From: Firmicutes bacterium ADurb.Bin248
Lineage (GTDB): Bacteria; Bacillota; Clostridia; Christensenellales; CAG-138
Length of the DNA: 64,000 nt
Direction of reading: 5' to 3'
Assembly: GCA_002069725.1 (NCBI GenBank)
Contig: MWBW01000002.1
Span: 11,225-75,224, forward strand
The position numbers and the translations under genes are program-made. Shown piece by piece: positions 7,699 to 47,702 of this stretch; positions within the stretch are counted from its first letter, which is position 1; every line of letters begins with the position of its first letter. The notes beneath the pieces are model-generated. The model saw only the letters and a program-made list of their open reading frames with translations. It was not told the DNA's origin and searched no databases.

Positions 7699-7744
7699 TT
7701 CAATTTCACCGCCCGTTGTGGTATGATTCATATATTGACAATAT
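7699..7744 (+). promoter_or_regulatory. Candidate MATE promoter with an overlapping palindrome
   Basis: -35 TTCAAT (7699-7704), a 17-nt spacer ending in TGg, and -10 TATGAT (7722-7727). The 13-bp perfect palindrome ATATTGACAATAT (7732-7744) follows immediately. Confidence 0.4.
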
Positions 7745-7793
7745 TTACGGGAGATTATGAGCTACGAAACGATTTAAGCGCGGCGACGCGGAC

Positions 7794-9200
7794 ATGACGC
7801 AGGGCGTCGTCTGGAAACAGCTCCTCGGATTTGCGATCCCGATGAGCGTGGGCCTGCTCTTTCAGCAGATGTACAACACGTTCGACGCGGTCGTGGTGGG
7901 ACAGTTCGTGGGCAAGGAAGCGCTCGCCGCGGTGGGCAGCACGGGCAGCATCGTGAACATGCTCGTGGGGCTCTGCGCGGGGCTTTCAACGGGGGCGAGC
8001 GTCGTCATCTCGCAGGCCTACGGCGCGAAGGAATATAAAAAGCTCAGCGACGCCGTGCACACGACCATACTCGTCACGTTCATACTGAGCATCGTCGCGA
8101 CCGTCTCGGGCATATTGCTCGTGCCGCCCATGCTCAGGCTGATGAACGCACCGGAAGACGTGTTTCCGCAGGCGAAGCTGTATCTGACGATCTACTTTTC
8201 GGGGGTCGCGGGTCTTCTCATGTACAACATGGGCGCGGGCATACTGCGCGCGGTGGGCGACTCGAGGCGGCCGCTGTATTTCCTGATTTTTTCGGCGACG
8301 CTCGACATCGGCATGAACTTCCTGTTCGTGGTCGTGTTCCATTGGGATATCAAGGGCGTCGCCTATTCGACCGTCATCGCGCAGGTGCTCTCGGCGGCGC
8401 TGGTGCTCTATACGCTCACCCGAACGGACGCGCCCTACGCGATCCGCTGGGGCGGCCTTCGCATCAAGCCGGAAATTCTGAAAAAAATACTCTCCATAGG
8501 CCTGCCCGCGAGCATACAGCAGGCTGTGACCTCGTTCACCAACGTGTTCGTCCAGTCCTACATCAACTCCTTCGGCTCGGGCGCCATGGCGGGCTGGTCG
8601 AGCTACAACAAGATCGACTCCTACGCGCTCGTGCCCGTGCAGAGCATTTCGCTCGCTTCGACCACTTTCGTCGGCCAGAACTACGGCGCGGGGCAGATCG
8701 GCCGCGCGCGCAAGGGCGTGCGGCAGGCGCTGACGATGTCCCTCGTCATCACGGCCGTGCTCTGCGCGCTGATGGTGGTTTTCCGCCGCCCGCTCGTGTC
8801 GATCTTTACCAACGATCCGGAGGTGCTCGACTTCGGCGGACGCTTCCTCGCGATCATATCGCCCTTCTACGTGCTGATCTGCTTCAACCAGATCTTTTCG
8901 GGCGCGCTTCGCGGCACGGGCCGCGCCAAAACGCCCATGATCGTGATGATCTCCTCTTTTGTCGTGTTCCGGCAGATCTATCTGTTCGTGTCTAAGCTCC
9001 TCGGCGGCGGTTTTTTGGCCGTCGCGCTCGCATATCCGGCGGGCTGGGTCGTGTGCAGCCTCGTCATGGCCGTCGTCTATTTAAGAAGCCCGCTTTGCCG
9101 TGAGCGCGACGGGGAAGGCGCCGCTTCCCGCGCCGGCGCGAGCGCGGCCGCGGAGGCTCTGGAGGAGGCGCTCTCGGCGGGCGAGGGCATCGAGGGGTGA
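7794..9200 (+). CDS. MATE-family efflux transporter
   Basis: 468 aa, about 12 TM helices. The N-terminus ..VWKQLLGFAIPMSVGLLFQQMYNTFDAVVVGQFVGKEALAAVG.. is typical of MATE proteins. ATG 7794 is the only in-frame start after the stop at 7758-7760. Confidence 0.9.
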   Translation: MTQGVVWKQLLGFAIPMSVGLLFQQMYNTFDAVVVGQFVGKEALAAVGSTGSIVNMLVGLCAGLSTGASVVISQAYGAKEYKKLSDAVHTTILVTFILSIVATVSGILLVPPMLRLMNAPEDVFPQAKLYLTIYFSGVAGLLMYNMGAGILRAVGDSRRPLYFLIFSATLDIGMNFLFVVVFHWDIKGVAYSTVIAQVLSAALVLYTLTRTDAPYAIRWGGLRIKPEILKKILSIGLPASIQQAVTSFTNVFVQSYINSFGSGAMAGWSSYNKIDSYALVPVQSISLASTTFVGQNYGAGQIGRARKGVRQALTMSLVITAVLCALMVVFRRPLVSIFTNDPEVLDFGGRFLAIISPFYVLICFNQIFSGALRGTGRAKTPMIVMISSFVVFRQIYLFVSKLLGGGFLAVALAYPAGWVVCSLVMAVVYLRSPLCRERDGEGAASRAGASAAAEALEEALSAGEGIEG

Positions 9201-9201
9201 T

Positions 9202-9810
9202 TCACCCTTCGAGCCGGCCGGCGAGCGTTTCGAGGCAGATTCGTATTCCCTGGATCATGTCCTCAAGCTCCATCGAAAAGGCGGTTTCGCTCTGCCCCTT
9301 CATGTAGGGGACGTGCACGAATCCCGCGCGCATTTTGGGCAGGTCGGTTCTCGCGCGATGCAATGCCACGTACATCGCGTCGTTGCACAGGTACGGCCCG
9401 GCGCTGTAGGAAAACGCGGCGGGAAGGCCCGCGGCGTTCAGCGCGTCGAGCATGGCCCGGCAGGGCAGGTTCGAGAACAGCCCGTCCGGCGCGCCGGGCA
9501 CGACGGGCTCGCCGCGCGCGATTTCGCCCAGATTGTCCGCAAGCTCGCTCTCGCGCAGGTTCATGGCGATGCGCTCTATGGTGATGGCGCACCTTCCGCC
9601 CGCCTGCCCGAGAAGCAGCGCCGCGTCCGGGCGCAGTTCGTCGAGAAGCAGGTTCACCTTCCCGTTCACGCGCACCCAGGCCACGGGCAGCTGCGCCTTG
9701 ACGACGCGCGCGCCCGGCAGTTCGTCCGGCATGGCTTTGGCGCATTCCCACGAGGGATTGACCTGCGCTCCGCCGAAGGGCTCGAAACCCGTGACGAGCA
9801 AGGTTTTCAT
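9202..9810 (-). CDS. pcp: Pyroglutamyl-peptidase I (peptidase C15)
   Basis: MKTLLVTGFEPFGG..NPSWE, LGQAGGR, SAGPYLCN (catalytic Cys region), FVHVPY. Start placed at ATG 9810 (GGGAGA SD) rather than the ORF-track start at 9855. Confidence 0.9.
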   Translation of the reverse strand: MKTLLVTGFEPFGGAQVNPSWECAKAMPDELPGARVVKAQLPVAWVRVNGKVNLLLDELRPDAALLLGQAGGRCAITIERIAMNLRESELADNLGEIARGEPVVPGAPDGLFSNLPCRAMLDALNAAGLPAAFSYSAGPYLCNDAMYVALHRARTDLPKMRAGFVHVPYMKGQSETAFSMELEDMIQGIRICLETLAGRLEG

Positions 9811-9937
9811 CCGTTCATTCTCCCATCCGTTCAACTGCAAAGGATTATACCACAATCCGCGCCGCGCGGCGATGCGCGCATGGCTTGATAGAGCGCGCTC
9901 CGGAGTGATATATTAATAGGGAAGGGAGGTGCTTCCC

Positions 9938-10291
9938 ATGAAGGAAAAGCTGCTTTTCAACGCGCCCAGCCCGCCCGAGGCGGGCATCCTCTGCGGCATT
10001 CTCGACGAGAACGGCATCCCGTACTACACCGTGACGCCCGGCCCCGGCGCGATCTACGCCGCATCGGTCAACATGGGCGTGCGTATCTTCGTTTCGGAGG
10101 AGGATTACGAGCGCGCTTTCCAATTGACCGACGGCTGCCTCGACGCGGGCGTCGAGCTCGTCGATTTCCCCGGTGACGTCGAGGCCGAACCCGGCAAGGC
10201 CGAACCCGTCGAGGCCGAACCCGGCAAGGCCGAACCCGGCAAGGACGCGCCCGGCGTGGGCGAACCCGCCGAAGACGGCGAAGAACCGTGA
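9938..10291 (+). CDS. Small protein with a DUF2007-like N-terminal domain and a repetitive acidic Pro-rich tail
   Basis: ATG 9938 lies 9 nt after GGGAGG. The N-terminal ~70 aa resemble the DUF2007 (putative signal-transducing) fold family. The tail is (VEAEPGKAEP)2. Confidence 0.45.
   Translation: MKEKLLFNAPSPPEAGILCGILDENGIPYYTVTPGPGAIYAASVNMGVRIFVSEEDYERAFQLTDGCLDAGVELVDFPGDVEAEPGKAEPVEAEPGKAEPGKDAPGVGEPAEDGEEP
10178..10244 (+). repeat. Tandem 30-bp coding repeat (2 full copies plus a partial copy)
   Basis: GTCGAGGCCGAACCCGGCAAGGCCGAACCC occurs at 10178-10207 and again at 10208-10237. Confidence 0.9.
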
Positions 10292-11112
10292 CCGCGCGGC
10301 GCATACTCGCCTGTTTCCTCGCGCTGGTTCTGCCCGCGCTTCTTCCCGGTTGCGGCAAAGCGCCGCGCGAGAGCGCGCCCGTGGAGGTCACGCGCGCGCC
10401 GAGCGCCATGGCGACGCCGCGCGCGACCCTCGCGCCCGCGCCGGGCGCGGAGCCGACGCCTTCTCCGACACCGGAGCCGACCATAGACGACGGCCGCGTG
10501 CAGCTCGCCGAGGGCTTCTATTACATTGAGCTCGACGGGCAAATCAAGGAGCGCATCACGGGATACAGCTATCCCGAGGACGATTCGGATATTGCCGTCC
10601 ATTACGACGACCTCCGATACATCCATCTGCTCTACTATGATTTCGACGGCGTTGAGCGCGAGGGCGAGCTGATCGTCCACGCACGGCTCGCCGACGAGGT
10701 CATGGAGATCTTTTACGAGCTGTATCAGGCGAAGTACCCGTTCACCTCGATCAAGCTCGTGGACGATTACGGCCAGGCCGCGGACGACGAGCTTTCCATG
10801 CGGGCCAACAACACCTCGGCCTTCAACTACCGTCCCGTGGCGGGCACGAAGAAGCTCTCGCTGCACAGCTTCGGCGCGGCCATCGACGTCAACCCCCTGT
10901 TCAATCCCTACATCAAGGCGGACGGCAGCTTTTACCCCGCGAACAGCGCGGAATACCGCGACCGCAGCCGCGATTTCCCGGGAAAGATCGACCATGACGA
11001 CCTCGCCTACGAGCTCTTCACCGCGCGCGGCTGGGATTGGGGCGGGGACTGGACGAGTTCCAAGGACTATCAGCATTTCGATAAGGATTTGGGCTTCGAC
11101 AGAACGCCGTGA
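10288..11112 (+). CDS. M15-family metallopeptidase (VanY / D-Ala-D-Ala carboxypeptidase-like) lipoprotein
   Basis: Lipobox LLPGC. Zn-ligand motifs SLHSFGAAIDVN and DYQHF. The GTG start overlaps the upstream stop (GTGA). Confidence 0.8.
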   Translation: MTARRILACFLALVLPALLPGCGKAPRESAPVEVTRAPSAMATPRATLAPAPGAEPTPSPTPEPTIDDGRVQLAEGFYYIELDGQIKERITGYSYPEDDSDIAVHYDDLRYIHLLYYDFDGVEREGELIVHARLADEVMEIFYELYQAKYPFTSIKLVDDYGQAADDELSMRANNTSAFNYRPVAGTKKLSLHSFGAAIDVNPLFNPYIKADGSFYPANSAEYRDRSRDFPGKIDHDDLAYELFTARGWDWGGDWTSSKDYQHFDKDLGFDRTP

Positions 11113-11121
11113 GGCGAGGGG

Positions 11122-11155
11122 CAATTGACAATGGAAAATTAACAATCGACAATCG
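11122..11155 (+). repeat. CAATTGACAA-family AT-rich motif (2 copies) just after the M15 stop
   Basis: CAATTGACAATGGA (11122-11135) is identical to the reverse complement of 27294-27307. AACAATCGACAATCG lies at 11141-11155. Confidence 0.85.
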
Positions 11156-11166
11156 GGTTTGATTCA

Positions 11167-11194
11167 GGCGGCCTCCGCTTCAAGCGAAGGCCGC
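11167..11194. terminator. GC hairpin between convergent genes
   Basis: GGCGGCCT..CGC-ttcaa-GCG..AGGCCGCC. No U-tract. Confidence 0.4.
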
Positions 11195-11242
11195 CCCGAG
11201 CCGGATCGTTATTCACTCTTAACCATTGGTTATTAGCTGAAT

Positions 11243-11270
11243 AATTGACAACTGTCAATTCTCAATTGCC
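11243..11270. repeat. CAATTGACAA-family motif as a palindrome straddling the stop of the anti-sigma-like gene
   Basis: AATTGACAACTGTCAATT (8-bp arms, 2-nt spacer) followed by CTCAATTGCC. The minus-strand gene ends GAG AAT TGA inside it. Confidence 0.85.
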
Positions 11271-11995
11271 CTGACGCCGATCCTCATTTCGCCGTCCGAA
11301 AGCGTGACGATGACGCGGTATTGACCGCCCACGATCTTGAGCGTGTTGGAGAGGCAGCAGCTTTGGACCGCTTCATCCTGGGCTTCGGCGTCGGGATACA
11401 TTTCCATGATGAGCGCGACGTAGGCGTCGAAATCCTCCTCGGTGCAGCCGGTCACGACCAAGAGGTAATGCTTCCCGTCGGACTCGACCTCGCTGCTCTT
11501 GCCGAAGCTCACCGCGGGAAGCTCGAGCGCCCGCTCCGCCCAATAGAGCGAGGCCGAGTCCAAACCGCAGCAGCCCGGCGGTTCAACCGCCGGCGCTCCG
11601 GTCGCCGCCGGCGTGGAGGGCGCGGCCGCGTCGCCCCTGTCGTCGCCGCCGTTCGCGCGCTCCGTGGGCGCGCTGCCGCCCGTGGCCGACTCGCTCCCGA
11701 ATAATTGCTCCTCGCTCTCGGGCACGGCCGGGTCCTGCACGGCGAAATACGCATTGTCGGGCGCTTCGGATTTTGCGCTCATCCCGAAGAATCCGCCGCT
11801 GAGCGCGCCGATTCCAAAGCTCGCGAGCAGCACGGCCGCCGCGGCCACGGAGCCGTAGCGGATGATGTTTTTCCTCAGCGCGAGCTCTTTCGCCTGCGCC
11901 TTTTTGAGCGTTCCCGAGCGCATGGCGGCATAATCCACGCCCGCGTTTGCCCTGTCGGCCACGGCGCGCAGAATTTCATCCATTTTTTCAGCCAT
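11255..11995 (-). CDS. Membrane protein, putative anti-sigma factor
   Basis: Translationally coupled to the ECF sigma gene (ATGGCTGA overlap; GGAGGTG lies 6 nt upstream of ATG 11995). Short cytoplasmic N-terminus, one TM helix, extracytoplasmic C-terminal domain. No zf-HC2 motif, so the function is inferred from context. Confidence 0.5.
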   Translation of the reverse strand: MAEKMDEILRAVADRANAGVDYAAMRSGTLKKAQAKELALRKNIIRYGSVAAAAVLLASFGIGALSGGFFGMSAKSEAPDNAYFAVQDPAVPESEEQLFGSESATGGSAPTERANGGDDRGDAAAPSTPAATGAPAVEPPGCCGLDSASLYWAERALELPAVSFGKSSEVESDGKHYLLVVTGCTEEDFDAYVALIMEMYPDAEAQDEAVQSCCLSNTLKIVGGQYRVIVTLSDGEMRIGVRAIEN

Positions 11996-12509
11996 GCAGC
12001 TCACCTCCTTTTAGCAGTTCGCCGAGCCTTCCCTTGGCGCGGGACATGCGCGATTTTATCGTTCCCTCGCTCACGCCCTGCAGCGCGGCGATTTCCTCAT
12101 ATTGCAAGCCCGAAAAGTAATGCAGCGTCACCGTTTCGCGGTAAATGTCCGGCAGCGAGTCGACCGCCCCGCGGACCAGGCGAACGGTTTCCGCGTTCAT
12201 CGCGGCGGGCTCGAGCAGCTCGCATTCGCTCGATACGGGCGTTTCGGGCAGCTCGTCCGCGAGCACTTCGCGCTTCAGGCGCCGCTTCCCGTCCACGCAA
12301 AGGTTGACGGTCACGCGGTAGAGCCAGCTTTTGAGCTGCGCTTCGCTCATATCCTCGAGCTTTTTCATGTGTCGGAGCACGCGGATGAACACCTCCTGTG
12401 AAACATCCAGCGCGTCGCTTTCGCTTTTGAGCGCGCCGTACGCCGTCCAGTACACCATGCGCGAAAAGCTCTCGTAGACGGAATCGAATTCCCACGCGGG
12501 CAATCTCAT
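11988..12509 (-). CDS. ECF-type RNA polymerase sigma-70 family factor
   Basis: Region 2 (DVSQEVFIRVLRHM..., WLYRVTVN) and region 4 HTH (YEEIAALQGVSEGTIKSRMSRAK). Start moved to ATG 12509, directly after AGGAGGG. Confidence 0.9.
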   Translation of the reverse strand: MRLPAWEFDSVYESFSRMVYWTAYGALKSESDALDVSQEVFIRVLRHMKKLEDMSEAQLKSWLYRVTVNLCVDGKRRLKREVLADELPETPVSSECELLEPAAMNAETVRLVRGAVDSLPDIYRETVTLHYFSGLQYEEIAALQGVSEGTIKSRMSRAKGRLGELLKGGELHG

Positions 12510-15193: not shown

Positions 15194-16660
15194 TCACAGC
15201 TCGATCACCCGCGTCGCCGCGTTCTCGAGGAACGCGCGGTCGTGCTCGACAAAGAGCATGGTCGGTTGTCCCTCGCGGATCAGCGCCTCGATCTGCATCC
15301 TTGAAAGGACGTCCACGTAGTTGAGCGGTTCGTCCCACAGGTACAGATGCGCGCGCTGGCACAGGCTCTTTGCGAGCAGCACCTTCTTGCGCTGCCCGGC
15401 CGAGAAGGAGCGCATGTCCTTCTCAAACTGCACGCGCGGGAAGTCTAGCTTGCGAAGGATCGTGAGGAACAGGCTCGCGTCGACGCCCTCGTAGTTCGCG
15501 AATTCCATCAGGTCGCCTTTGAGCAAGGACGTATCCTGCGGCACGTAGGAGATCACAAGCCCGCTCGCCAAACGCACGGTGCCGCTGTGGGGGATGTCCT
15601 CGCCCGCGACGAGCTTGACGACGCTCGACTTGCCGCAGCCGTTGGGCCCCGCGAGGGCGACGCGCTCGCCGCGCCTGAGCTCGAACGAAAAGCCGGATAA
15701 TACGTCCCGCCCGGGATAAGCGACGGCAAGGTCGCGTATCTCCAACAATCTTTCGTTCCTGTGGACGAGCGGATGCACCGCGAGGTTCTCGTTGCGCTCG
15801 ATGTTCTTCAAGAGCTTGGATTTTTCCTCGACGGCGCCCTCGCGCCGCTTCTCGATGGCCTTGGCGCGCTTCATCATCTTGGCGGCCTTGTGGCCGATCG
15901 CGCCCCGGTCGGCGGCGTGGGAGCCGATCTTCGTCGCCTCGACCGCGTCCGACCAGCCGGAGGTGCGCCGCGCCGCCTCGGTCAGGTGGCGGATTTCGCC
16001 CATCAGCTTTTCGTTCTCGTCGAGCTCGAAGGCGTCTTGCCGCCGCTTGTTCTCCCACCATTGCGAGAAGTTGCCCTTGTTGAGCGTGATGTTCGCCCTG
16101 TTGATCGAGAGTATGTGGTCGACGCAGCCGTCGAGGAACGCGCGGTCGTGGCTCACGAGTATGAAGCCCTTCTTTGAATTGAGGTAATCCCGCACGATGT
16201 CGCGCGCGCGCATGTCGAGGTGGTTGGTCGGCTCGTCGATGAGAAGGAAATTGTTTTCCTTGAGGAACAGCGCCGCGAGCAGCGCTTTGGTGCGCTCCCC
16301 GTGGCTCAGGGTCGAAAACGGGCGATACAGCGTTCCCTCGTCCATGCCAAGCAGGTTGATCTCGCGGATGAGCTGCCAGGGCGCGTGGCGCGGACTGATC
16401 TCATCGAGTATTTCCATGGTGTCCCGCCCCGAGTCGGGTATGTCGAACGGGAAGTAATCGAAGTGTACGGAAGCGGAAATGCTCCCCTGATATTCGTATT
16501 TGCCCATGAGCAGGTTGAGGAACGTGGTCTTGCCGCGCCCGTTCCTGCCGGTGAAGCCGAGTTTCCAGTCCGTGTCGAGCTGGAAGGACACGTGTTCGAA
16601 TATGTTGTCGTAGCTGCCCTCGTAGCAGAACGTCAGATCGTTGACGGATATCAAAGACAT
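15194..16660 (-). CDS. ABC-F type ribosomal protection protein (Lsa/antibiotic-resistance ARE-like)
   Basis: Two ABC ATPase domains with no TM region. N-terminus MSLISVNDLTFCYEGSYDNIFEHVSFQLDTDWKLGFTGRNGRGKTTFLNLL, an interdomain linker, and a second Walker A GPNGCGKSS. Start placed at ATG 16660. Confidence 0.85.
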   Translation of the reverse strand: MSLISVNDLTFCYEGSYDNIFEHVSFQLDTDWKLGFTGRNGRGKTTFLNLLMGKYEYQGSISASVHFDYFPFDIPDSGRDTMEILDEISPRHAPWQLIREINLLGMDEGTLYRPFSTLSHGERTKALLAALFLKENNFLLIDEPTNHLDMRARDIVRDYLNSKKGFILVSHDRAFLDGCVDHILSINRANITLNKGNFSQWWENKRRQDAFELDENEKLMGEIRHLTEAARRTSGWSDAVEATKIGSHAADRGAIGHKAAKMMKRAKAIEKRREGAVEEKSKLLKNIERNENLAVHPLVHRNERLLEIRDLAVAYPGRDVLSGFSFELRRGERVALAGPNGCGKSSVVKLVAGEDIPHSGTVRLASGLVISYVPQDTSLLKGDLMEFANYEGVDASLFLTILRKLDFPRVQFEKDMRSFSAGQRKKVLLAKSLCQRAHLYLWDEPLNYVDVLSRMQIEALIREGQPTMLFVEHDRAFLENAATRVIEL

Positions 16661-16830
16661 AACAAAAGACCCCCTTGGGATGCCGGAATGCGCGCGACGG
16701 AAACGACGAACGCGGGCGCGGCATCTGCCGAACCTCAATCACGCCGAAACAACCATCGCTTAGTTGCGCACTCCTGTAGCTCCTTTGGACGATCTTTTGT
16801 CTATGATATATTAAGCCTTAGTCGGCGTCA
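16661..16830 (-). promoter_or_regulatory. 5' leader of the ABC-F gene with a candidate promoter, a mini-uORF and GC-rich structure
   Basis: Minus strand reads TTGACG..TATCAT promoter-like hexamers, then AAAGGAG-8nt-GTG CGC AAC TAA (16771-16760), then the long-range pairing GATGCCG...CGGCATC just before the SD GGGGG. Confidence 0.3.
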
Positions 16831-16868
16831 ACTATAAAGCAATAAACTTTGTTGAGGGTTATCTACAA

Positions 16869-17528
16869 TTAGTAAGCTGGCAGATAAAAATCTATAACGT
16901 CAGCACTAAACGAATGGAGAAAAGTTATAGTTAACAATGAGTATTGTACTTCAAAAAAACAAACTGCTATTGGATTGGTAGTTGCACAATTGGTGCCATT
17001 CCCCTCGGCATTAATGCTGCCACCTAACAGGGACATTGAACCACTATAACTACCTACAACATAGCAACCCGTTATTGCACCAGATAAATATACTTTGCCA
17101 TTTGTTGTTGTTTTATTAACGTTCCATGTCATATATAGAGTGCCGGTAACATTAAAACCATATCTTCCATCATCAGACGAAACATGCTCATCAACTGGCC
17201 GGTTCCAAGAACAATTATAAAGTCCATCTCTCATAGTGCCCCTTGCCTGGGCTGTGCGAGATACCAAACATACTTTATATGAATCTACGGTTGTAGTTAG
17301 TTCAGATAGGAAATCTTCCAGCTCTTTAACATCGTCATTGCTTAAAACTGTATTCTCATCATTTAGCGTAATTTTAACACCGTATTTATCTTCTAATTCT
17401 TGCAGTCTTGAATCCTGTGACTCGGCATTAGAAACATCTGAGATGTTCAGACCATTAAGCGCAAACGCACTATTGTAAACGGTCAAGCAAAGAACAAAAG
17501 AAATCGCAAGCGCTATAATTTTTTTCAC
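16869..17528 (-). CDS. Secreted protein of unknown function (AT-rich islet gene 2)
   Basis: GTG start 6 nt after GGAGG. Signal peptide MKKIIALAISFVLCLTVYNSAFA. Acidic N-terminal region followed by a Cys-containing, beta-rich C-terminal region. A/T-ending codons. Confidence 0.55.
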   Translation of the reverse strand: MKKIIALAISFVLCLTVYNSAFALNGLNISDVSNAESQDSRLQELEDKYGVKITLNDENTVLSNDDVKELEDFLSELTTTVDSYKVCLVSRTAQARGTMRDGLYNCSWNRPVDEHVSSDDGRYGFNVTGTLYMTWNVNKTTTNGKVYLSGAITGCYVVGSYSGSMSLLGGSINAEGNGTNCATTNPIAVCFFEVQYSLLTITFLHSFSADVIDFYLPAY

Positions 17529-17543
17529 AATTAGCCTCCATAA

Positions 17544-18158
17544 CTAAATTTCATTTGATGTGTGAGTAGCTGTATCAATACCATACTTGAAAACACTTGA
17601 CAGAAAAAGAAAAACTAAACCTATAATACCTCCTTTTATACTATTTGTAATGTCATATCCAACGCCCATAAAATCTACCGTTTGCATATTCACAATAGCT
17701 GGTATAACGATGATGCTTAACAAAGGCATCACAATAGCATACGCAATCATTATAATGCTGCAAAAGATGAGAATTTTAAAGTTATTGGTGACGAAAACCC
17801 TTCTGCGTGCAATGTTAAAGCAGAAAAAGGAAAGAATTACAGCACATAGCGATGCTGGGATCATATGCAATAAACCAATTGAAATCACGCCTAGCTGTGC
17901 TGCTTTCGAAATTCCATCATCCGTTGTTATATATATTTGCTCGGGTAATATAATCTTAATACTACCATCATTATCCCCAGAGACATATATGTCTGCGGAA
18001 GCATTATTTTGGCGGGAAATACGAGTAATTCGTATATTGCCCTGGATCATGGAGATGCTTTGATTTAGAATAGAAACCAAGAATACATAACAGAGAATTT
18101 GCATCAAATAGGCTGTAATGGTTCGCCATAACTTCCTGTCTTTCATATTAACCAACAA
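17544..18158 (-). CDS. Membrane protein, DUF2975-like (AT-rich islet gene 1)
   Basis: One N-terminal TM helix, an extracytoplasmic segment, then 3 TM helices. ..FNIARRRVFVTNNFKILIF.. resembles the DUF2975 core. GAGGTG SD. Start uncertain (TTG 18158/18155 or ATG 18146). Confidence 0.5.
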   Translation of the reverse strand: MLVNMKDRKLWRTITAYLMQILCYVFLVSILNQSISMIQGNIRITRISRQNNASADIYVSGDNDGSIKIILPEQIYITTDDGISKAAQLGVISIGLLHMIPASLCAVILSFFCFNIARRRVFVTNNFKILIFCSIIMIAYAIVMPLLSIIVIPAIVNMQTVDFMGVGYDITNSIKGGIIGLVFLFLSSVFKYGIDTATHTSNEI

Positions 18159-18441
18159 AATACACCTCGCTATTCGTGTAATTAGTGATTTCTATTGAAC
18201 AACAGCATCTGTATCTTCGCCTCATGTTTTTGTTATCATTATGTTGGATTGTTAACGATAAGTTTGATGTCTATTAGTTAAGGCGGCATATTGATACCTC
18301 CGATTCATTACAGTCGAATCGTTTATATATTGAAAAATTTTTATAAAATCATTATACTAAAAATTATAAATATGTCAATTTGTTATTTCCATAGAATTTC
18401 ACAGTTCATAAATTATTCAAAATGTTTTAACGCTCTCTCCG

Positions 18442-18509
18442 TTGTGCAAGGGACAATCCGTGGTAAAATATTGAATGCAAAAATGAGAACATTGGTTCTC
18501 ATGGGGAGG
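18442..18509 (+). promoter_or_regulatory. Candidate clpB promoter plus a 20-bp palindrome abutting the SD
   Basis: -35 TTGTGC (18442-18447), 16-nt spacer ending in TGg, -10 TAAAAT (18464-18469). ATGAGAAC-ATTG-GTTCTCAT at 18483-18502, then GGGGAGG. Confidence 0.4.
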
Positions 18510-18517
18510 TAAGTACG

Positions 18518-21104
<2,587 letters not shown>

Positions 21105-21115
<11 letters not shown>

Positions 21116-21135
21116 CAACTGATAATTGACAATAA
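21105..21135 (+). repeat. Three overlapping CAATTGACAA-family motifs containing the clpB stop codon
   Basis: TTGACAATTGACAACTGATAATTGACAATAA. clpB ends GTT GAC AAT TGA inside it. Confidence 0.9.
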
Positions 21136-21194
21136 AGGAACGGCCGCCGCGGGCGGGGAATTGCGGGGGGCGGCCCTGTGCGGCCGCCGTTCCT
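21136..21194 (+). other. Long GC-rich hairpin between clpB and the next gene
   Basis: AGGAACGGCCGCCGCG ... TGCGGCCGCCGTTCCT. 14 Watson-Crick pairs plus one G-T wobble out of 16 positions. No U-tract follows. Confidence 0.5.
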
Positions 21195-21211: not shown

Positions 21212-21625
21212 ATGCTCAGGGAAAGGGCTGAAAAATACTACCTCGAAGGCGATTACAACTGCGCGGAGGCGATCCTGCGCGCGGCCAACGACGCCTGCGC
21301 GCTCGGCCTTCGCGAGGACGCGCTGCGGCTCGCGGGCGGCTTCGGCGGCGGCATGGGCCGCGGGGAAGCCTGCGGCGCGCTGTGCGGCGCGATGGCTGTC
21401 ATCAGCGCCGTTCTGATCGAAACGCGCGCGCACGCGACGCCCGGCTTCAAGCAGAAGTGCGCGGACTACGTCGCGCGCTTTGAGGGAAGGCTCGGCGGCA
21501 TAGACTGCCGCGACCTCAAGCCGAAATATGCCCGCGACGGCCGCCGCTGCGCCGACGCCGTGGCGCTGGGCGCGGAACTCTTGGAAGAATTCCTGCGGGA
21601 ATGCCATGTCGTTGTTCAACGGTAA
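21212..21625 (+). CDS. C_GCAxxG_C_C family protein
   Basis: 137 aa. YNCAEAIL.., GEACGALCGAMAV, and later conserved Cys residues. GGAGAGG SD. The last codons and the stop lie in the first REP unit. Confidence 0.8.
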   Translation: MLRERAEKYYLEGDYNCAEAILRAANDACALGLREDALRLAGGFGGGMGRGEACGALCGAMAVISAVLIETRAHATPGFKQKCADYVARFEGRLGGIDCRDLKPKYARDGRRCADAVALGAELLEEFLRECHVVVQR

Positions 21626-21820
21626 TAGGCGGCAAAGCAGGGGCCGATTCCATATCGGCCCCTGGTTCAACGACAATAGGCGACAAAGTAGGGGCCGATT
21701 CCATATCGGCCCCTGATTCAACGACAATAGGCGACAAAGCAGGGGCCGATTCCATATCGGCCCCTGATTCAACGACAATAGGCGACAAAGTAGGGGGCCG
21801 ATTCCATATCGGCCCTTTGA
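21615..21820 (+). repeat. Tandem array of four 51-bp REP-like stem-loop units
   Basis: Units start at 21615, 21666, 21717 and 21768. Each holds GGGGCCGAT-TCCAT-ATCGGCCCC (hairpins at 21640-21662, 21691-21713, 21742-21764; the fourth is slightly degenerate at 21795-21815). Confidence 0.95.
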
Positions 21821-27226: not shown

Positions 27227-27293
27227 GGGCGGCCGCATAGGGCCGCCCTTACTGCATGAGGGGATTCCGCGATGCGGGATCCCCCTTCTTTTG
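27227..27293 (+). terminator. Two hairpins after ftsH; the second is a Rho-independent terminator
   Basis: GGGCGGCC-gcatag-GGCCGCCC (27227-27248). GGGGATTCCGC-gat-GCGGGATCCCC (27260-27284) followed by TTCTTTTG. Confidence 0.7.
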
Positions 27294-27307
27294 TCCATTG
27301 TCAATTG
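27294..27307 (-). repeat. CAATTGACAATGGA motif 4 nt after the ileS stop
   Basis: The minus strand reads TAA tcgg CAATTGACAATGGA. This 14-mer is identical to 11122-11135. Confidence 0.9.
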
Positions 27308-27311
27308 CCGA

Positions 27312-30449
<3,138 letters not shown>

Positions 30450-34472: not shown

Positions 34473-34541
34473 ATACTAGATTTTGTATGTGAAGTAAAAT
34501 CCGGTACTACATATCGTAGCGCCGGATTCATGTTTTGTCAA
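34473..34541 (-). promoter_or_regulatory. Candidate nrdD promoter with two NrdR-box-like palindromes
   Basis: -35 TTGACA (34541-34536). 16-bp boxes at 34504-34519 (..CTACATATCGTAG) and 34473-34488 (ATACTAGATTTTGTAT). Their centres are 31 bp apart, the classical NrdR tandem spacing. Confidence 0.45.
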
Positions 34542-34565
34542 TCGTTATTTGTCTGTATTTGGAAA

Positions 34566-35447
34566 TTATTTAATGCGCCGCGCCTGCACGGCGAAGCGGG
34601 AGTTGTCGTATTCGTAGGTGCAGGTCGAGAGGGTCAACACCTGGTCCGCCGCGGTGACGGCGACGGACTCGTCCACGAGCGAGGGCGAAACGGTGTTGGC
34701 GTAGGCGGCCATCTCGGCCATATAGCTGACGAAGTTGTTGTCGTCCAAAAAGCGCGTGGCGATGTAGTTGATCGTAAAGCCGTCGGTGTTGGGTATGATC
34801 GTGGCGAGGTAGATCTCCCACACGGTTTCGGTGCCGTCCCAGAGGAAGTAGATGAACCTGTTCTCTTTGAAGAAATCCTTCTGCTTGTAGTTCATCAGGT
34901 CGTGGAACATGGTGCCGTTCTTCATGTTGTGGCCGTAGAGTATGATGTGCTTCTGCTGCTCGGCGTCGGCGTTGCGGAAATCCATGAAGACCGTGCCGTA
35001 GCGGCTCTTCTGCTTCTCCACGTTGCGGCCGAGGTAATACTCGTTGTCGTCGCAGCGGACCACGGGGTAATCTATGGATGTGCCGGGTATGCTGATCCAG
35101 CCGACCACGTCGGGATTCAGTTTGCGCGCGTCCTCATATTTGAGCGTGGGCAACACGTCGTCCGCCTGGGCGATGCCGTTGAGCTCGTCCGCCGTGAACT
35201 CGCGCTCGGCGAGTATGGGTTCGGCTCCGCCGTCCGTTTGGCCGGGGAGCGCGTGCGTCGTTTCGGGCGTGACGGCGGGGCTCGCGCTTGGGGGCGCGGT
35301 GGGCGCCATGGTCGCCTTGGCCTGTATGGGCGTGTTCGTCGGGCTCGCGCTCACAGCGCCGCCGCAGGCGGCAAGCAGGCATACGGCCCCGCACAGCAGC
35401 AGCGCCGAAAGCTTTTTTGCGTATCCCGCCGCGCGCGCGCGAAGCAT
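34566..35447 (-). CDS. srtB: Class B sortase (paralogue 1)
   Basis: Catalytic His (LYGHNM) and Cys (TLSTC), with the ..VGWISIPGTSIDYPVV.. motif. The N-terminus has a lipobox-like LLAAC and a Pro/Thr/Ala linker. Confidence 0.85.
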   Translation of the reverse strand: MLRARAAGYAKKLSALLLCGAVCLLAACGGAVSASPTNTPIQAKATMAPTAPPSASPAVTPETTHALPGQTDGGAEPILAEREFTADELNGIAQADDVLPTLKYEDARKLNPDVVGWISIPGTSIDYPVVRCDDNEYYLGRNVEKQKSRYGTVFMDFRNADAEQQKHIILYGHNMKNGTMFHDLMNYKQKDFFKENRFIYFLWDGTETVWEIYLATIIPNTDGFTINYIATRFLDDNNFVSYMAEMAAYANTVSPSLVDESVAVTAADQVLTLSTCTYEYDNSRFAVQARRIK

Positions 35448-40798: not shown

Positions 40799-42181
40799 AT
40801 GGATCAACGCGTCGATCGCTGGATAGACGAGCATGGGGAACAGATGGTACGGGGCCTGCAAAAGTGCCTCTCCTACAGGACGGTGAAGGATTCCGCCGCC
40901 GCGAAGCCGGGCGCGCCCTTCGGGCCCGAGATCGCGGACTGCCTCGAGGACGCGCTCGCGCAGGCGCAGGCGCTCGGCTTTGAAACGAAGAACCTCGACG
41001 GATATTGCGGTTGCGTCGATTTCGGCGAGGGAGAGGAGCAGTTGGGCATACTCTGCCACCTCGACGTCGTGCCCGAGGGGGCGGGGTGGAAGCATCCCCC
41101 CTATGCGGCGGAGATCCACGACGGCATGCTCTACGCGCGCGGCGTGATGGACGACAAGGGGCCCGCCTTCGCCGCGCTCTACGCCATGGCCGCGATCAAG
41201 GCGCTGGATTTACCCATGAAGCGCCGCGTGCGGCTCATACTCGGCTGCGACGAGGAGAGCGGCATGGAGTGCCTCGCGCACTACAACAAGGTCGAACCCG
41301 CTCCGGACATGGCCTTCTCGCCCGACGCCGAATACCCTGTGGTCAATTCGGAAAAGATGATCTTCCGCAGCGAATATAAAAAGGAATATCCCTCCGCGAT
41401 CCGCATCAGATCCGGCACCGTGCCCAACGCCGTGCCCGGCGAGGCGGAGGCGGAGCTTTCGCTTTCGCTCAACCGGATACTGCCCATCGTGGAAGCCTTC
41501 ATGGAAAGGAGCGAATACGCCTGCGCCGCCGAGGCGGCGGACGGCGGCTGCCGCATCAAAGTGACGGGCGTCGCCGCGCACGCCTCCATGCCGGAGCAGG
41601 GCAAAAACGCCTTCCTGGCGCTGCTTCAGCTCCTCGATAAACTGCCGCTCGAAAAACAGGACGCGGCGACCGTTTCCGCCCTCGCGGACGTTCTTCGCCT
41701 CGATTACTACGGGCAGCGGTTCGGCCTCGATATGGCGGACGCCTCGGGCAGGCTCACGCTCAACGTCGGCGTGGTCGATTGGGACGAAACGGGCCTCAGG
41801 CGCCTCACCGTGGACATCCGCGCGCCCATCTCCGCTGACGGCAACGTGATCCGCCGAAAGCTCGCCGAAGGCTTCGCGCCCGCCGGCCTCGCCGAAATCA
41901 AAGCGAGCTGGAGCGAGGGCTATTACATGCCGCCCGAGAGCGAGCTTGTGAAGTCCCTGCTCGACGTGTACGCCGCGCGCTCGGGCAAGTATCTGCCCCC
42001 GCTCGCCATCGGCGGCGGCACCTACGCGCGCCACCTCAAAAACGCGGTGGCCTTTGGCATAGAGCGCCCGGGCGAGCCTTCCCCGGTCCACATGGCCAAC
42101 GAGCGCATGCCCGTCGCCCACCTCGTCGAGGACGCCAAGATGATCGCCGACGCCATAATCGCGCTCGCGGTGGAAAAATAA
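40799..42181 (+). CDS. M20-family dipeptidase (PepV/Sapep-like)
   Basis: ILCHLDVVPEG, ARGVMDDKGP, C-terminal ..GGGTYAR... ATG 40799 lies 5 nt after TGGAGGT. Confidence 0.85.
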   Translation: MDQRVDRWIDEHGEQMVRGLQKCLSYRTVKDSAAAKPGAPFGPEIADCLEDALAQAQALGFETKNLDGYCGCVDFGEGEEQLGILCHLDVVPEGAGWKHPPYAAEIHDGMLYARGVMDDKGPAFAALYAMAAIKALDLPMKRRVRLILGCDEESGMECLAHYNKVEPAPDMAFSPDAEYPVVNSEKMIFRSEYKKEYPSAIRIRSGTVPNAVPGEAEAELSLSLNRILPIVEAFMERSEYACAAEAADGGCRIKVTGVAAHASMPEQGKNAFLALLQLLDKLPLEKQDAATVSALADVLRLDYYGQRFGLDMADASGRLTLNVGVVDWDETGLRRLTVDIRAPISADGNVIRRKLAEGFAPAGLAEIKASWSEGYYMPPESELVKSLLDVYAARSGKYLPPLAIGGGTYARHLKNAVAFGIERPGEPSPVHMANERMPVAHLVEDAKMIADAIIALAVEK

Positions 42182-42204
42182 TTGACATGGACAATTGACA
42201 ATCG
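42180..42204 (+). repeat. Two CAATTGACAA-family motifs overlapping the stop of the dipeptidase gene
   Basis: AAA TAA TTGACATGGACAATTGACAATCG. Confidence 0.9.
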
Positions 42205-42215
42205 CATGGACGCAA

Positions 42216-42256
42216 ACGCCCTTCGCTTCAATGGCGAAGGGCGTTTTTCGTTTTGT
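42216..42256 (+). terminator. Rho-independent terminator
   Basis: ACGCCCTTCGC-ttcaatg-GCGAAGGGCGT followed by TTTTCGTTTTG. Confidence 0.8.
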
Positions 42257-44823: not shown

Positions 44824-44961
44824 GACGCGTCCTCCGAATATGAAAGGTATGTACATATCATATAACGAAAAGGCGCCTTCCGCCATACTTTCGTCTTGCG
44901 CGCGGGGATACTTTTTACTATGATAATGAAAACATCCGAACCTGCGACGAAAGGAATCCCT

Positions 44962-46473
44962 ATGGCCTATTATTTCGAGGAACCCTCGCATACCTTCGCG
45001 GAATACCTGCTCGTGCCCGGCTATTCGGGCGCGGACTGCGCGCCCGCGAACGTGTCGCTCAAAACCCCCGTGTGCAAGTTCCGCCGCGGGGAGGAAAGCC
45101 CGCTTACGATGAACATACCGCTCGTGTCGGCCGTCATGCAGTCCGTCTCGGGCGAAAAGCTCGCCGTCGCGCTCGCCAAGGAGGGCGGCGTGTCGTTCGT
45201 GTTCGTGTCGCAGTCCGTCGAGAGCCAGGCGGATATGGTGCGCCGCGTCAAAAAGTATAAATCCGGCTTCGCCAACAGCGACAGCAACGTGACGCCGAGG
45301 CATACCATGCGCGACGTGATGGAGTTGAAGCAGAGGACGGGGCACTCGACCGTCGCCGTCACCGACGACGGCGGCCCGAACGGCAAGCTCCTGGGCATGG
45401 TCACGAGCCGCGATTACCGCCCGAGCCGCATGGACCCCGAAACGAAGGTCGAAACGTTCATGACGCCCGTCGAGCGGCTCGTGTTCGCGCACGAGGGCGT
45501 CACGCTCAAGGAAGCCAACGACATCATCTGGGAGCACAAGCTCAACGCCCTGCCCATCGTCACCAGGGAGGGCAACATGGCCGCGTTCGTGTTCCGCAAG
45601 GATTACGACACGCACAAGGAGAATCCCCACGAGCTGCTCGACACGAACAAGCGCTACGTCGTGGGCGCGGGCGTCAACACGCGCGATTACGAGGAGCGCG
45701 TGCCCGCTCTCGTCGGCGCGGGCGCGGACGTGCTGTGCGTCGATTCCTCCGAGGGCTTCACAGAATGGCAGCAGAGGACGCTTTCCTTCGTCCGCGGGTG
45801 CTACGGGGATACCGTCAAGATCGGCGCGGGCAACGTGGTGGACCGCGAGGGCTTCCGCTTCCTCGCGAACTGCGGCGCGGATTTCGTCAAGGTCGGCATC
45901 GGCGGCGGCTCCATCTGCATCACGCGCGAAACCAAGGGCATCGGCCGCGGTCAGGCGAGCGCCGTGCAGGAGGTCGCCAAGGCGCGGGACGAGTATTTCA
46001 AAGAAACGGGCGTCTATGTTCCCATCTGCGCGGACGGCGGCATCGTCATGGATTACCACATCACGCTCGCGCTCGCCATGGGCGCGGATTTCTGCATGCT
46101 CGGCAGGTACTTCGCGCGCTTCGACGAGAGCCCCACGAGCAAGGTGCTCATCAACGGCAGCTACATGAAGGAATACTGGGGCGAGGGCAGCGCGCGCGCG
46201 CGCAACTGGCAGCGCTACGACAGCGGCGGGGACGCCAAGCTTTCCTTCGAGGAGGGCGTGGACTCCTACGTGCCCTACGCGGGCAGCTTGCACAACAACG
46301 TCGAGACGACGCTCGCCAAGGTGCGCTCCACCATGTGCAACTGCGGCGCGCTCACGATACCCGAGCTGCGCGAGAAGGCGCGGCTCACGCTCGTCTCACC
46401 CGCGAGCATCGCCGAGGGCGGCGCGCACGACGTGCTCCTGAAGGACAGCCGTTTGTTCGACGGGAAAAATTGA
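44962..46473 (+). CDS. guaB: IMP dehydrogenase (variant with [12 protein letters not shown] active-site loop)
   Basis: 503 aa. TIM barrel with an inserted CBS pair. Catalytic Cys loop [20 protein letters not shown]. Confidence 0.88.
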
Positions 46474-46514
46474 CAGTTGAATTTGGATCAATCGCCTTTC
46501 GCTTCAGCGGCGGA
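46467..46514 (+). repeat. CAATTGACA-family motif containing the guaB stop, followed by a GC hairpin
   Basis: AAA AAT TGA CAG TTG AATTTGG. AATTGACAGTTG is identical to the minus-strand sequence at 11247-11258. Then CGCCTTTCGC-ttca-GCGGAGGGCG (the stem needs two G-U pairs). Confidence 0.8.
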
Positions 46515-46607
46515 GGGCGTTCTCGCCTTTGCTCGCAGCCGACCTAAAAATTCTTTTTACCACCAAAAAAATTTTCATAAAAACGATCGATTATCGACGC
46601 TCTCCCG

Positions 46608-46669
46608 TTGACACGGAATAGGCCGGTCGATATACTAATAGCGCATGTGCATATTCGGTTACATATGCA
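46608..46669 (+). promoter_or_regulatory. Candidate arcC promoter with a downstream inverted repeat
   Basis: TTGACA (46608-46613), 17-nt spacer, TATACT (46631-46636). TGCATAT-N8-ATATGCA at 46648-46669. Confidence 0.5.
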
Positions 46670-46706
46670 GGGAAAGCTTCATAAAGGCTTAAAAAGGAGA
46701 CAGCAA

Positions 46707-47648
46707 ATGAGTAAGATCGTCATCGCGCTCGGGGGCAACGCCCTGCAGGAGGCGGGCAAGCCCGCAACGGCCCAGGCGCAGCTCGCGGTCGTCGAAAGCA
46801 CCAGCGAGCACATCGCCGACATCATCGAAAAAGGTTACGAAGTATGCATCGCGCACGGCAACGGCCCGCAGGTCGGCCGCATCGTTCTGCAGAACGAGGG
46901 GTCGGACAGCGAGGCCACGCCCGCCATGCCCTTCGACGTATGCGGCGCCATGAGCCAGGGCATGATCGGCTACCACATCCAGCAGGGGCTTTCGAAGGTC
47001 CTCCGCCGGCGCGGGATCGAAAAGGAGGTCGTCACCGTCGTCACGCAGGTCGTCGTCGATGCGGAGGACCCCAAGTTCAAGAATCCCTCGAAGCCCATCG
47101 GCCCCTTCTACAGCGAGGAGCAGGCAAAGCGCATCGCCCGGGAGAAGGGCTACGTCATGAAGGAGGACGCGGGCCGCGGCTGGCGGCGCGTCGTCGCCTC
47201 GCCCATGCCCGTGGAGATCGTGGAGCTCAACGCGGTCAAGGCGCTGAGCGCCGCGGGCTTCATCGTGGTGACCGTCGGCGGCGGCGGCATACCGGTCGTG
47301 AAGGATGAAAACGGAAACCTCGCCGGCACTGCGGCCGTCATCGACAAGGACCTCGCGAGCGAGCGCCTCGCCGAGGATACGGACGCGGACGCCCTGGTGA
47401 TACTCACGGCGGTCGAAAAGGTCAGCGTCAACTATAAGAAGCCCGACCAGAAGGATCTCGACATTCTCAGCGTTGCGGACGCGAAGCGCTATATCGGGGA
47501 AGGCCACTTCGCGCCGGGCTCCATGCTCCCCAAGATCGAGGCCGCGCTCATGTTCGTTGAGAGCAAGCCCGGCAGGCGGGCCATCATCACCTCGCTCGAC
47601 AAGGCGGTGGACGCGCTCGAGGGCCGCGCGGGCACGACGCTTCAATAA
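46707..47648 (+). CDS. arcC: Carbamate kinase
   Basis: MSKIVIALGGNAL.., IAHGNGPQVG, 313 aa. AAGGAGA SD. Confidence 0.9.
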   Translation: MSKIVIALGGNALQEAGKPATAQAQLAVVESTSEHIADIIEKGYEVCIAHGNGPQVGRIVLQNEGSDSEATPAMPFDVCGAMSQGMIGYHIQQGLSKVLRRRGIEKEVVTVVTQVVVDAEDPKFKNPSKPIGPFYSEEQAKRIAREKGYVMKEDAGRGWRRVVASPMPVEIVELNAVKALSAAGFIVVTVGGGGIPVVKDENGNLAGTAAVIDKDLASERLAEDTDADALVILTAVEKVSVNYKKPDQKDLDILSVADAKRYIGEGHFAPGSMLPKIEAALMFVESKPGRRAIITSLDKAVDALEGRAGTTLQ

Positions 47649-47667
47649 AAAATATATCCGGTGTTCA

Positions 47668-47702
47668 GGGGGCTTCGGCCCCTTGACAATTGCCGGATTT
47701 TT
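47668..47702 (+). terminator. Hairpin, TTGACAATTGCC motif and T-run after arcC
   Basis: GGGGC-ttcg-GCCCC (47669-47682), TTGACAATTGCC (47683-47694), then GGATTTTTTG. Confidence 0.55.

Follow-up and report, generated by a model that had tools for sequence, protein, structure and literature searches.

Why should an AT-rich word recur at the ends of unrelated genes in a GC-rich genome? The question is raised by a 64,000-nt stretch of Firmicutes bacterium ADurb.Bin248 (assembly GCA_002069725.1, contig MWBW01000002.1, positions 11,225 to 75,224; hereafter the window), which comes from an uncultured Clostridia lineage of anaerobic digesters and wastewater. A first-pass annotation, made from the letters alone, had described dispersed copies of TTGACAAT at or near stop codons, usually ahead of a GC hairpin. 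Here we find that this word is the junction between tandem 7-nt units (heptads), that arrays of such units are phased onto stop codons and that each array is followed by a stable hairpin. Our preferred explanation, to which we give a probability of roughly 0.6, is a gene-end module resembling repetitive extragenic palindromic (REP) sequences and miniature inverted-repeat transposable elements (MITEs), in which an unstructured, stop-rich spacer is joined to a terminator or stabiliser hairpin; its function and its means of spreading are what we infer.

Tandem heptads at gene ends

Exact TTGACAAT occurs seven times in the window (7735, 11125, 21105, 21126, 27297 on the reverse strand, 42195 and 47683), with near-variants at 11147, 11245/11253, 21112, 42183 and 46469. 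The expected number is 0.70, and 0 of 100 whole-window shuffles reached seven; the coordinates reported by the first-pass annotation, and its guess of less than one copy per window, were thus both borne out. So were the two longer identities that it had listed, namely the 14-mer CAATTGACAATGGA at 11122 and 27294 (reverse strand) and the 12-mer AATTGACAGTTG at 46468 and 11258 (reverse strand). When up to one mismatch is allowed, CAATTGACA is found 21 times in the window, against 6.6 expected. Because the non-coding DNA is only 51% GC (the window as a whole is 63%), we retested the enrichment against a stricter null, an order-2 Markov model of the 5.8 kb of non-coding DNA alone. The signal held, with eight copies each of ATTGACA (0.76 expected) and TTGACAA (1.08 expected), which are the most enriched of the frequent non-coding 7-mers, alongside words from an unrelated REP family.

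What the first reading had overlooked was the 7-nt tandem structure, the presence of stops inside the arrays and the paralogy of array plus hairpin. The repeated unit has the consensus N-A-A-T-(T/G)-G-A and is typically CAATTGA. In the window, Tandem Repeats Finder detects a 7-nt period only at 11122, 21105 and 42180, and a register scan resolves six arrays of 3–5 units each and one weak array at 34551-34531(-) (Table 1). Units are best conserved toward the gene-proximal end. No Rfam family matched at the arrays, and a literature search with the array 14-mers returned no paper that contains the array sequence. The earlier count of TTGACA, which listed three copies inside coding sequence, had missed four more: three are the -35 boxes of near-consensus promoters at 18378(-), 30738(-) (ileS T-box leader) and 46608(+) (arcC), and one, at 34541(-), sits inside the weak array.

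Table 1. Heptad arrays, associated hairpins and isolated copies of the motif in the window
Feature	Position	Strand	Context
Heptad array, 5 units (CAATTGA CAATGGA AAATTAA CAATCGA CAATCGG)	11122..11156	+	M15_4 peptidase end
GC hairpin GGCGGCCTCCGCTTCAAGCGAAGGCCGCC	11167..11195	both	Common to the convergent M15 and anti-sigma-like genes
Heptad array, 4 units (CAATTGA GAATTGA CAGTTGT CAATTAT)	11241..11268	-	Anti-sigma-like gene 11255-12004(-)
Heptad array (TAGTTGA CAATTGA CAACTGA TAATTGA CAATAAA)	21102..21136	+	clpB end
Long GC hairpin after the clpB array, core CCGCCGCGGGCGG	21136..21194	+	Core conserved in L202 and L203
Heptad array (TAATCGG CAATTGA CAATGGA CAAAAGA)	27287..27314	-	ileS end
GC hairpin after the ileS array	27260..27284	-	No T-tract in the ileS direction
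Weak degenerate array (CAAATAA CGATTGA CAAAACA)	34531..34551	-	Followed by a hairpin and T-tract
Heptad array (TAATTGA CATGGA CAATTGA CAATCGC)	42179..42205	+	M20 dipeptidase end
14-bp hairpin, CCCTTCGCTTCAA..GCGAAGGG subfamily, with T-tract	42214..42256	+	Intrinsic-terminator-like, M20 end
Heptad array (AAATTGA CAGTTGA ATTTGGA)	46467..46487	+	guaB end
Hairpin CGCCTTTCGCTTCAGCGGCGGAGGGCG, M20-type subfamily, weak T-tract	46493..46519	+	guaB end
Single TTGACAAT	7735..7742	+	Divergent region upstream of MatE gene; no array, not at a stop codon
Single TTGACAATTG	47683..47692	+	Within 3' arm of the arcC terminator hairpin; no array

Arrays are phased onto stop codons

The layout that had been described, from stop codon to AT-rich motif to GC hairpin, is tied to the 3' ends of genes: all six arrays are co-oriented with the gene upstream and anchored on its stop codon. 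The first base of the stop lies at -12, 11, 4, 0, 0 and 4 relative to the array start. At the M15_4 peptidase gene (10288-11112), the array begins 9 nt past the TGA at 11110-11112. Elsewhere, a unit of the array itself supplies the stop. This is a TGA at clpB (21113-21115, where the array also encodes the last residues, ..IVDN), at guaB (46471-46473, first unit) and at the anti-sigma-like gene (11257-11255, second unit), and a TAA, provided by a TAATTGA or TAATCGG unit, at ileS (27314-27312, first unit) and at the M20 dipeptidase gene (42179-42181, first unit). The weak array begins 15 nt past the stop of gene 34566-35447(-). Strand-specific placement at random within the non-coding DNA would satisfy the stop criterion 10.5% of the time, which gives P = 1.4e-6 for six of six.

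On our gene map, which was built from codon-usage scores and is consistent with external gene calls, 28 gene ends have a non-coding tail; arrays occupy 6–7 of these, and some lie between convergent genes. None was found in the window's operon junctions or within its coding DNA. A forward array presents TGA in all three frames within three units, a TAATTGA unit adds TAA, and the reverse strand is free of stops.

Arrays and hairpins form a composite repeat

Each array leads within 0–20 nt into a stable GC hairpin. In predicted RNA folds, the arrays are unpaired, or weakly paired through the CAAUUG palindrome, beside these strong hairpins. The first-pass annotation had described the hairpins as lacking a U-tract; this is correct in the sense direction for clpB, M15 and ileS, but a clear T-tract accompanies the hairpin at M20 (42214-42246), and a weak one that at guaB.

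Paralogous hairpins stand after M15/anti-sigma, M20 and guaB in the window and in the related genomes L091 and L202. They share the form CGSCCTTCGCTTSAA(N0-4)GCGRRGGSCG with a 13-bp stem, and the eight copies, from four gene ends in three genomes, agree at 73% column identity, with compensatory changes at three stem pairs and a T-tract in six of the eight. The hairpin at 11167..11195 matches CGSCCTTCGCTTSAA...GCGRRGGSCG on either strand, and it is flanked by forward and inverted arrays (11122-11268); the other five arrays of the window have no inverted partner. A terminal CAATCNN unit followed by a 10-nt TGAaTTCA-like linker precedes the hairpin in 6/7 copies of the subfamily, and this paralogous hairpin type was seen next to arrays only. 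On the + strand, the hairpin of the ileS array is followed by CTTCTTTTGT.

We also aligned assembly contigs from four metagenomes to the M20 module. In each metagenome, the cognate contig was accompanied by 4–7 others of similar depth, several of which carry heptads in the adjoining upstream sequence, and by a collapsed 61–65-nt contig at about threefold depth. A scan of the metagenome contigs with the hairpin-subfamily pattern returned 17 matches, all of them chance hits in unrelated GC-rich DNA that lacks heptads. Given the paralogous hairpins and the extra contigs that match the M20 module, array and hairpin together form a dispersed composite repeat. The full module consists of an array, a linker of about 10 nt and a GC hairpin, sometimes with an inverted array beyond, and it is placed, in the sense direction, exactly where a gene ends. 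This bears on a refuting condition set by the first-pass annotation, that the motif belong to the terminal repeat of a known insertion sequence (IS) or MITE: this is a REP/MITE-like dispersed paralogous repeat, but not a known IS or MITE end.

Phages carry an independent set of arrays

In IMG/VR, 31 viral loci that range from 33 to 65% GC contain three perfect units (21 nt), a match for which the chance expectation is, by estimate rather than calculation, far below one. In all, these loci carry 102 distinct arrays of up to 13 units (median 4). They are ordinary terminase and structural operons, and on that ground we set aside the idea that heptad arms flank small four-helix-bundle gene cassettes. 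Considering co-oriented open reading frames (ORFs) of at least 80 codons, we observed that stops pile up at offset 0 (TAA, n=9), at offsets 4, 11 and 18 (TGA; n=9, 6 and 7) and between -7 and -2 (n=13), whereas the ends of opposite-strand ORFs in the viral loci showed no offset peak. Stop anchoring in any frame is thus a property of the heptad family.

The viral arrays also give a unit logo, C76-A95-A91-T98-T76/G23-G85-A98 (percentages), which is somewhat biased, as the search called for a 5/7 match and placed a constraint on position 7. A2-A3-T4 are 91–98% conserved, and five of the seven positions 85–98%. The T5 that forms the stop is among the least conserved positions, which argues against stop codons as the selected feature. 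Nearly half of the viral arrays (47/102) are paired with an inverted one no more than 110 nt away, often on the other side of a hairpin, and 33/102 have a start codon within 60 nt. In all ten co-directional phage pairs, the predicted fold was weaker on the sense than on the antisense strand; because the set is redundant, we treat this as a tentative lead. A scan of the viral sequences for a heptad, a gap and a hairpin returned 75 matches, about the number due to chance by an uncalculated estimate.

One siphophage-like family (IMG/VR loci L176, L184, L191 and L201) has at least six near-identical modules of about 117 nt between structural genes. In each module, TAATTGA(CAATTGA)3CAATGAA leads into the hairpin GTCGCCTTCGGCGAC with a T-tract and then into an inverted CAATGGA array; in each locus, two adjacent modules are 659 nt apart. 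Outside the viral set, unrelated metagenome-assembled genomes (MAGs) contain other heptad variants: GAATTGA units with a hairpin in a Clostridia MAG (L016, 18710-18751), AATGGAG units in a Mageeibacillus sp. (L017, 10869-10889) and CTTGACA units in a Verrucomicrobiia MAG (L054, 8963-8936).

Turnover and retention among relatives

The window sequence is present in many sludge metagenomes, and an identical ClpB is encoded on ENA and JGI digester metagenome contigs and in MAG GCA_035367135.1. Judged by GuaB, the closest relative with a name is Beduinella massiliensis (79% identity). Using GuaB and ClpB homologues, we retrieved the orthologous gene ends of closer relatives, whose identity to the window is 92% (L091) or 88–90% (L086, L087, L093 and L095) for GuaB, and 96% (L202), 94% (L204) and 90% (L203) for ClpB.

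The first-pass annotation had proposed conservation in related genomes as a check, and the outcome differs from site to site. The M20 and guaB arrays are present in the window and in L091, where homologous hairpins follow and two units stand where the window has four, and they are absent from L086, L087, L093 and L095. In L086 the stop codon falls at the same position as in the window, and in the other array-less relatives the M20 and guaB genes end within 1–2 codons of it. Likewise, the M15 and anti-sigma arrays of the window are matched in L202 (the array at 11122..11156 by a homologous one), are missing from L203 and are reduced to a two-unit relic in L222. The anti-sigma array of L202 consists of stop-free CAATGGA units, through which the ORF reads for 13 codons. 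The arcC terminator (47655-47700), a long hairpin that includes TTGACAATTG in its 3' arm, is conserved in L091; in L086, L093 and L095, the next gene directly follows arcC.

Other arrays persist at about 90% protein identity, namely those of clpB and ileS. The clpB array, with the same hairpin core, is found in the window, L202 and L203, and a REP hairpin takes its place in L204. In more remote relatives, clpB has the ancestral ..KLVVK end and is followed by a plain terminator; a ClpB-homologue scan of genome contigs likewise found relatives of at most 82% identity to have plain clpB terminators and almost no arrays. Between the window and either L202 or L203, the clpB array and the start of its hairpin are identical at 46–47 of 60 nt, as against 0.68–0.73 at fourfold sites and about 0.62 over the next 51 nt. 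The ileS arrays of the window and L086 agree, by eye, at about 20 of 25 positions and are homologous. The family therefore turns over, as the gains and losses indicate, yet at some sites, as at clpB, it outlasts neutral DNA; this better-than-neutral retention could reflect selection or concerted evolution. Across four DNA metagenomes, at about 1% divergence, there were no unit-number indels, and the sole array change was a C>T at 11147, seen in three of the four, that converts CAATCGA to the consensus CAATTGA.

A probable REP/MITE-like module and its alternatives

We suggest that the module is copied to new gene ends in the manner of a REP/MITE-type element. In such a model, the forward array would end translation in any frame within three units and would serve as an unstructured, AU-rich spacer of 20–35 nt between the site of ribosome release and the hairpin, which may terminate transcription or protect the 3' end of the mRNA. 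The module would be tolerated, and perhaps useful, because the forward array stops any frame and spaces the hairpin. Conservation of the AAT.GA core suggests that the sequence itself is recognised, whether by the machinery that copies the module or by a factor that binds single strands.

Several observations weigh against this model. We found no transposase, no duplication of a target site at the array junctions and no cleanly bounded empty site, and the intergenic DNA of the relatives has diverged too far for the 3' edge of an insertion to be placed. A T-tract is missing from three of the six hairpins, so a terminator role would not extend to all of them, and the metatranscriptome runs yielded sparse contigs of this organism with no coverage over 21052-21145, the region of the clpB array. 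The hairpins at clpB and ileS differ from the M15/M20/guaB subtype, and the ileS hairpin of the window differs from that of L086; array and hairpin may therefore be separable. Finally, the sharp stop anchoring goes beyond what random insertion plus selection alone explains. Microhomology with TAA or TGA and a function that requires adjacency to the stop are possible reasons.

The strongest competing explanation, which we nevertheless regard as unlikely, is that the heptads act in cis, as a signal that a trans-acting factor with affinity for single-stranded RNA reads in 7-nt register. Candidates would include a HutP- or TRAP-like ring protein, a protein with a cold-shock or S1 domain, or a ribonuclease such as RNase Y; by binding just beyond the stop, the factor would tune termination at the hairpin that follows, or mRNA decay, and the repeat would have spread by being useful rather than mobile. 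The arrays may be a termination-factor signal, one of the roles first suggested for the motif, or an RNA-binding signal. The unit logo fits it, as five of seven positions are highly conserved and the stop-forming T5 is not, as do the predicted folds, which would leave the arrays unpaired directly upstream of hairpins, and the retention of arrays, which at clpB exceeds that of fourfold sites and at ileS has outlasted replacement of the hairpin. There is also a precedent in period: in the hut mRNA of Bacillus subtilis, HutP recognises UAG triplets spaced as UAG-N4 repeats, with a 7-nt period, in single-stranded RNA directly upstream of a terminator hairpin. For the TAACTGA heptamers of other bacteria, compared below, S1, Csp (cold-shock protein) or CsrA has been proposed as the binding protein (PMC4679880). 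On the other hand, about 21 of 28 gene ends do without an array, close relatives gain and lose arrays freely, the paralogous hairpin copies favour copy-and-paste spread, and no candidate protein was identified.

A broader form of this idea is speculative, and we think it distinctly improbable: (C/T)AAT(T/G)GA heptads, with TAACTGA as a sister form, might constitute a cross-lineage gene-boundary signal on the transcript, read by a single-strand factor with a 7-nt footprint. Such a factor would load once the ribosome leaves the stop and would then decide between termination, antitermination and 3'-end protection, and phages would carry the signal to use or hijack it. The context UGA-CAA-UUG, similar to the CAR-YYA context at which plant viruses read through stops, might add a programmed leakiness, caught by a second in-frame stop 7 codons on.

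Could the arrays instead be selected purely as multi-frame stop cassettes, which would catch read-through or frameshifted ribosomes where high GC makes off-frame stops rare? The first-pass annotation had raised a stop cassette, and part of that suggestion stands: CAATTGA arrays offer TGA in three frames, with a further TAA from TAATTGA and none on the reverse strand; they supply the actual stop at clpB, guaB, ileS, M20 and the anti-sigma-like gene; and the near-equal use of phage offsets 4, 11 and 18 (9, 6 and 7) implies that any frame is caught. In its pure form, we consider the idea very doubtful. Position 5 is G in 23% of units, CAATGGA is stop-free and L202 reads 13 codons through such units; the best-conserved positions, A2, A3 and T4, are irrelevant to TGA; arrays also occur in contigs of 33–45% GC, in which off-frame stops are plentiful; and a backup stop would not require one heptamer everywhere.

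A slim chance remains that the arrays are double-stranded DNA sites, whether tandem 7-bp boxes bound by a ribbon-helix-helix or nucleoid protein, an obstacle in the path of RNA polymerase, a CAATTG restriction–modification target, or an uptake or recombination signal. CAATTG is palindromic, 47/102 phage arrays pair with an inverted one, antisense folds are stronger in the 10/10 co-directional phage contexts (tentatively, as the set is redundant), and the omega repressor of pSM19035 binds heptads, WATCACW, in direct or inverted arrays. However, co-orientation and stop phasing are unexpected for a symmetric site or an uptake signal. The uptake proposal of the first-pass annotation, tried here as a DNA uptake sequence or uptake signal sequence (DUS/USS), fails in particular, as arrays are absent from coding DNA and strictly gene-oriented and stop-anchored at gene ends; and its suggestion of a methylation or restriction target finds no echo in the six CAATTG sites outside arrays, against 5–12 expected, which indicate neither avoidance nor enrichment.

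That the motif is an ordinary -35 box or a by-product of AT-rich intergenic composition can be dismissed as having a negligible chance: TTGACA is indeed the sigma-70 -35 consensus and is used as such at the three promoter-like sites given above, but the arrays sit between convergent genes, as the first-pass annotation had pointed out for several copies, and are directed into terminators, the only '-10' elements they pair with are the GACAAT of the next heptads, and the enrichment is 7–10-fold even against the intergenic-only background.

Tandem heptamers have been recorded for decades, unexplained, in cyanobacteria, Beggiatoaceae, Bacteroidetes and Geobacter. The variant in Clostridia and phages adds exact stop phasing, a coupled paralogous hairpin, and gain, loss and unit-number change among relatives. 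If a factor does read the arrays, they would represent a new layer of control that joins translation termination to transcription termination; if they are selfish, they would be a mobile element made harmless by its own three-frame stop and terminator. For annotation, the arrays matter in that they rewrite the last 1–13 residues of housekeeping proteins and break metagenome assemblies.

Other features of the window

A low-GC island (16655-18517; 45% GC) separates an ABC-ATPase gene from clpB and encodes two small genes, 16869-17528(-) and 17544-18158(-), with no family match. It is present in the same-species contigs L001 and L002 and absent from that place in L202, L203 and L222; on this pattern it looks like a recent insertion. 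Upstream of ileS, the consensus promoter TTGACA-18-TATAAT at 30738 precedes a T-box leader (30484-30700(-)) that scores 86.9 bits, against an Rfam gathering score of 93. The DUF2007-like gene 9929-10291 contains an in-frame 15-nt tandem repeat, AGGCCGAACCCGGCA, of 5.8 copies (10182-10268).

The window also holds REP-type repeats. Between the C_GCAxxG and PreP peptidase genes, 21615-21815 comprises 3.9 tandem copies (94% matches) of a 51-nt unit, and each unit contains the GTAG/GCAG-tagged REP hairpin GGGGCCGATTCCATATCGGCCCC; this REP also stands after clpB in L202 and L204 and after DUF1846 in L203. In its GTAG-tagged form, GGGGCCGATTCCATATCGGCCCC is also the REP associated with a gene that resembles REP-associated tyrosine transposases (RAYTs), at 30939-31619(-), and GTAG precedes the GGGGCCGAT.. 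repeat type. NCBIfam NF047646 matches this gene with E = 3.6e-18, which falls short of the curated cut-off, and Pfam Y1_Tnp matches it with E = 3.7e-4; HLH (HUH-type) and YYDH motifs are visible in it. Its N-terminal part includes an in-frame 18-nt tandem repeat (31424-31494, 4 copies, encoding ARDSIS) built from the hairpin GGGCCGAT..ATCGGCCC, and copies of GGCCGATTTAGGGTCGGGC lie just downstream of the gene. The GGGGCCGATTCCATATCGGCCCC repeat is a classical family of REPs and bacterial interspersed mosaic elements (BIMEs) that is distinct from the heptads.

Relation to known repeat systems

The module resembles REP/BIME sequences, and the REPINs (paired REPs) that RAYTs of the Y1/HUH class mobilise, in being a short extragenic hairpin repeat at gene 3' ends, often between convergent genes, that is present or absent among close relatives; REP/BIME sequences can terminate transcription or stabilise mRNA. 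With an imperfect palindrome of 20–40 nt that is extragenic and multi-copy (eight aligned hairpin copies), it agrees with the definition of a REP in that respect. By contrast, the array-linked hairpins lack the 5' GTAG/GTGG tag and have instead a TGAaTTCA-like linker and a heptad array, and they are phased onto stop codons. We considered the RAYT-like gene as a mobiliser of the heptads and rejected it, as GGCCGAT-type hairpins, not heptads, lie within it and on either side; no RAYT was found in the array-rich phage loci.

Short tandemly repeated repetitive (STRR) heptanucleotides reportedly occur in heterocystous cyanobacteria, with heptamers near start codons in Nostoc (bioRxiv 10.1101/2022.06.06.494920). 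Like the arrays described here, they are intergenic tandem heptamers, genome-wide and lineage-specific, and a regulatory role is suspected for them. They differ in unit sequence and in position, near promoters or start codons, with no reported stop phasing or coupled hairpin. The likeness to HutP is an analogy only, one of working principle rather than membership: HutP acts on one dedicated operon leader and is a known protein, whereas the heptads occur at many gene ends and have five conserved positions per unit.

The closest counterpart is the set of TAACTGA repeats of marine Beggiatoaceae, some Cyanobacteria and Bacteroidetes (MacGregor 2015, PMC4679880), and the heptads are, on our best reading, a variant of these in an uncultured Clostridia lineage and many phages. 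Both consist of 7-nt direct tandem units (2–6 in the TAACTGA sets), almost always intergenic and fixed in orientation relative to genes; both belong to a YAAYTGA unit family, with CAACTGA and TAATTGA units together in the clpB array; and both have forward three-frame stops, so that TAACTGA-type arrays can overlap only the last codons of an ORF, with the tail ..ITDN there and ..IVDN or ..IIDN here. Neither has predicted RNA structure in the arrays themselves, and both have a patchy phylogenetic spread. The differences lie chiefly in placement. TAACTGA sets mostly point at a downstream start codon, ending within a few nucleotides of it, and only 13–14 of 170 overlap an upstream stop (PMC4679880), whereas the arrays of the window are anchored on the upstream stop and lead into a GC hairpin rather than a start codon. 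The dominant units here are CAATTGA, CAATGGA and TAATTGA, with a single CAACTGA, in the clpB array; and in Clostridia and phage hosts the arrays form a paralogous composite with their hairpins, whereas no hairpin is coupled to the TAACTGA repeats.

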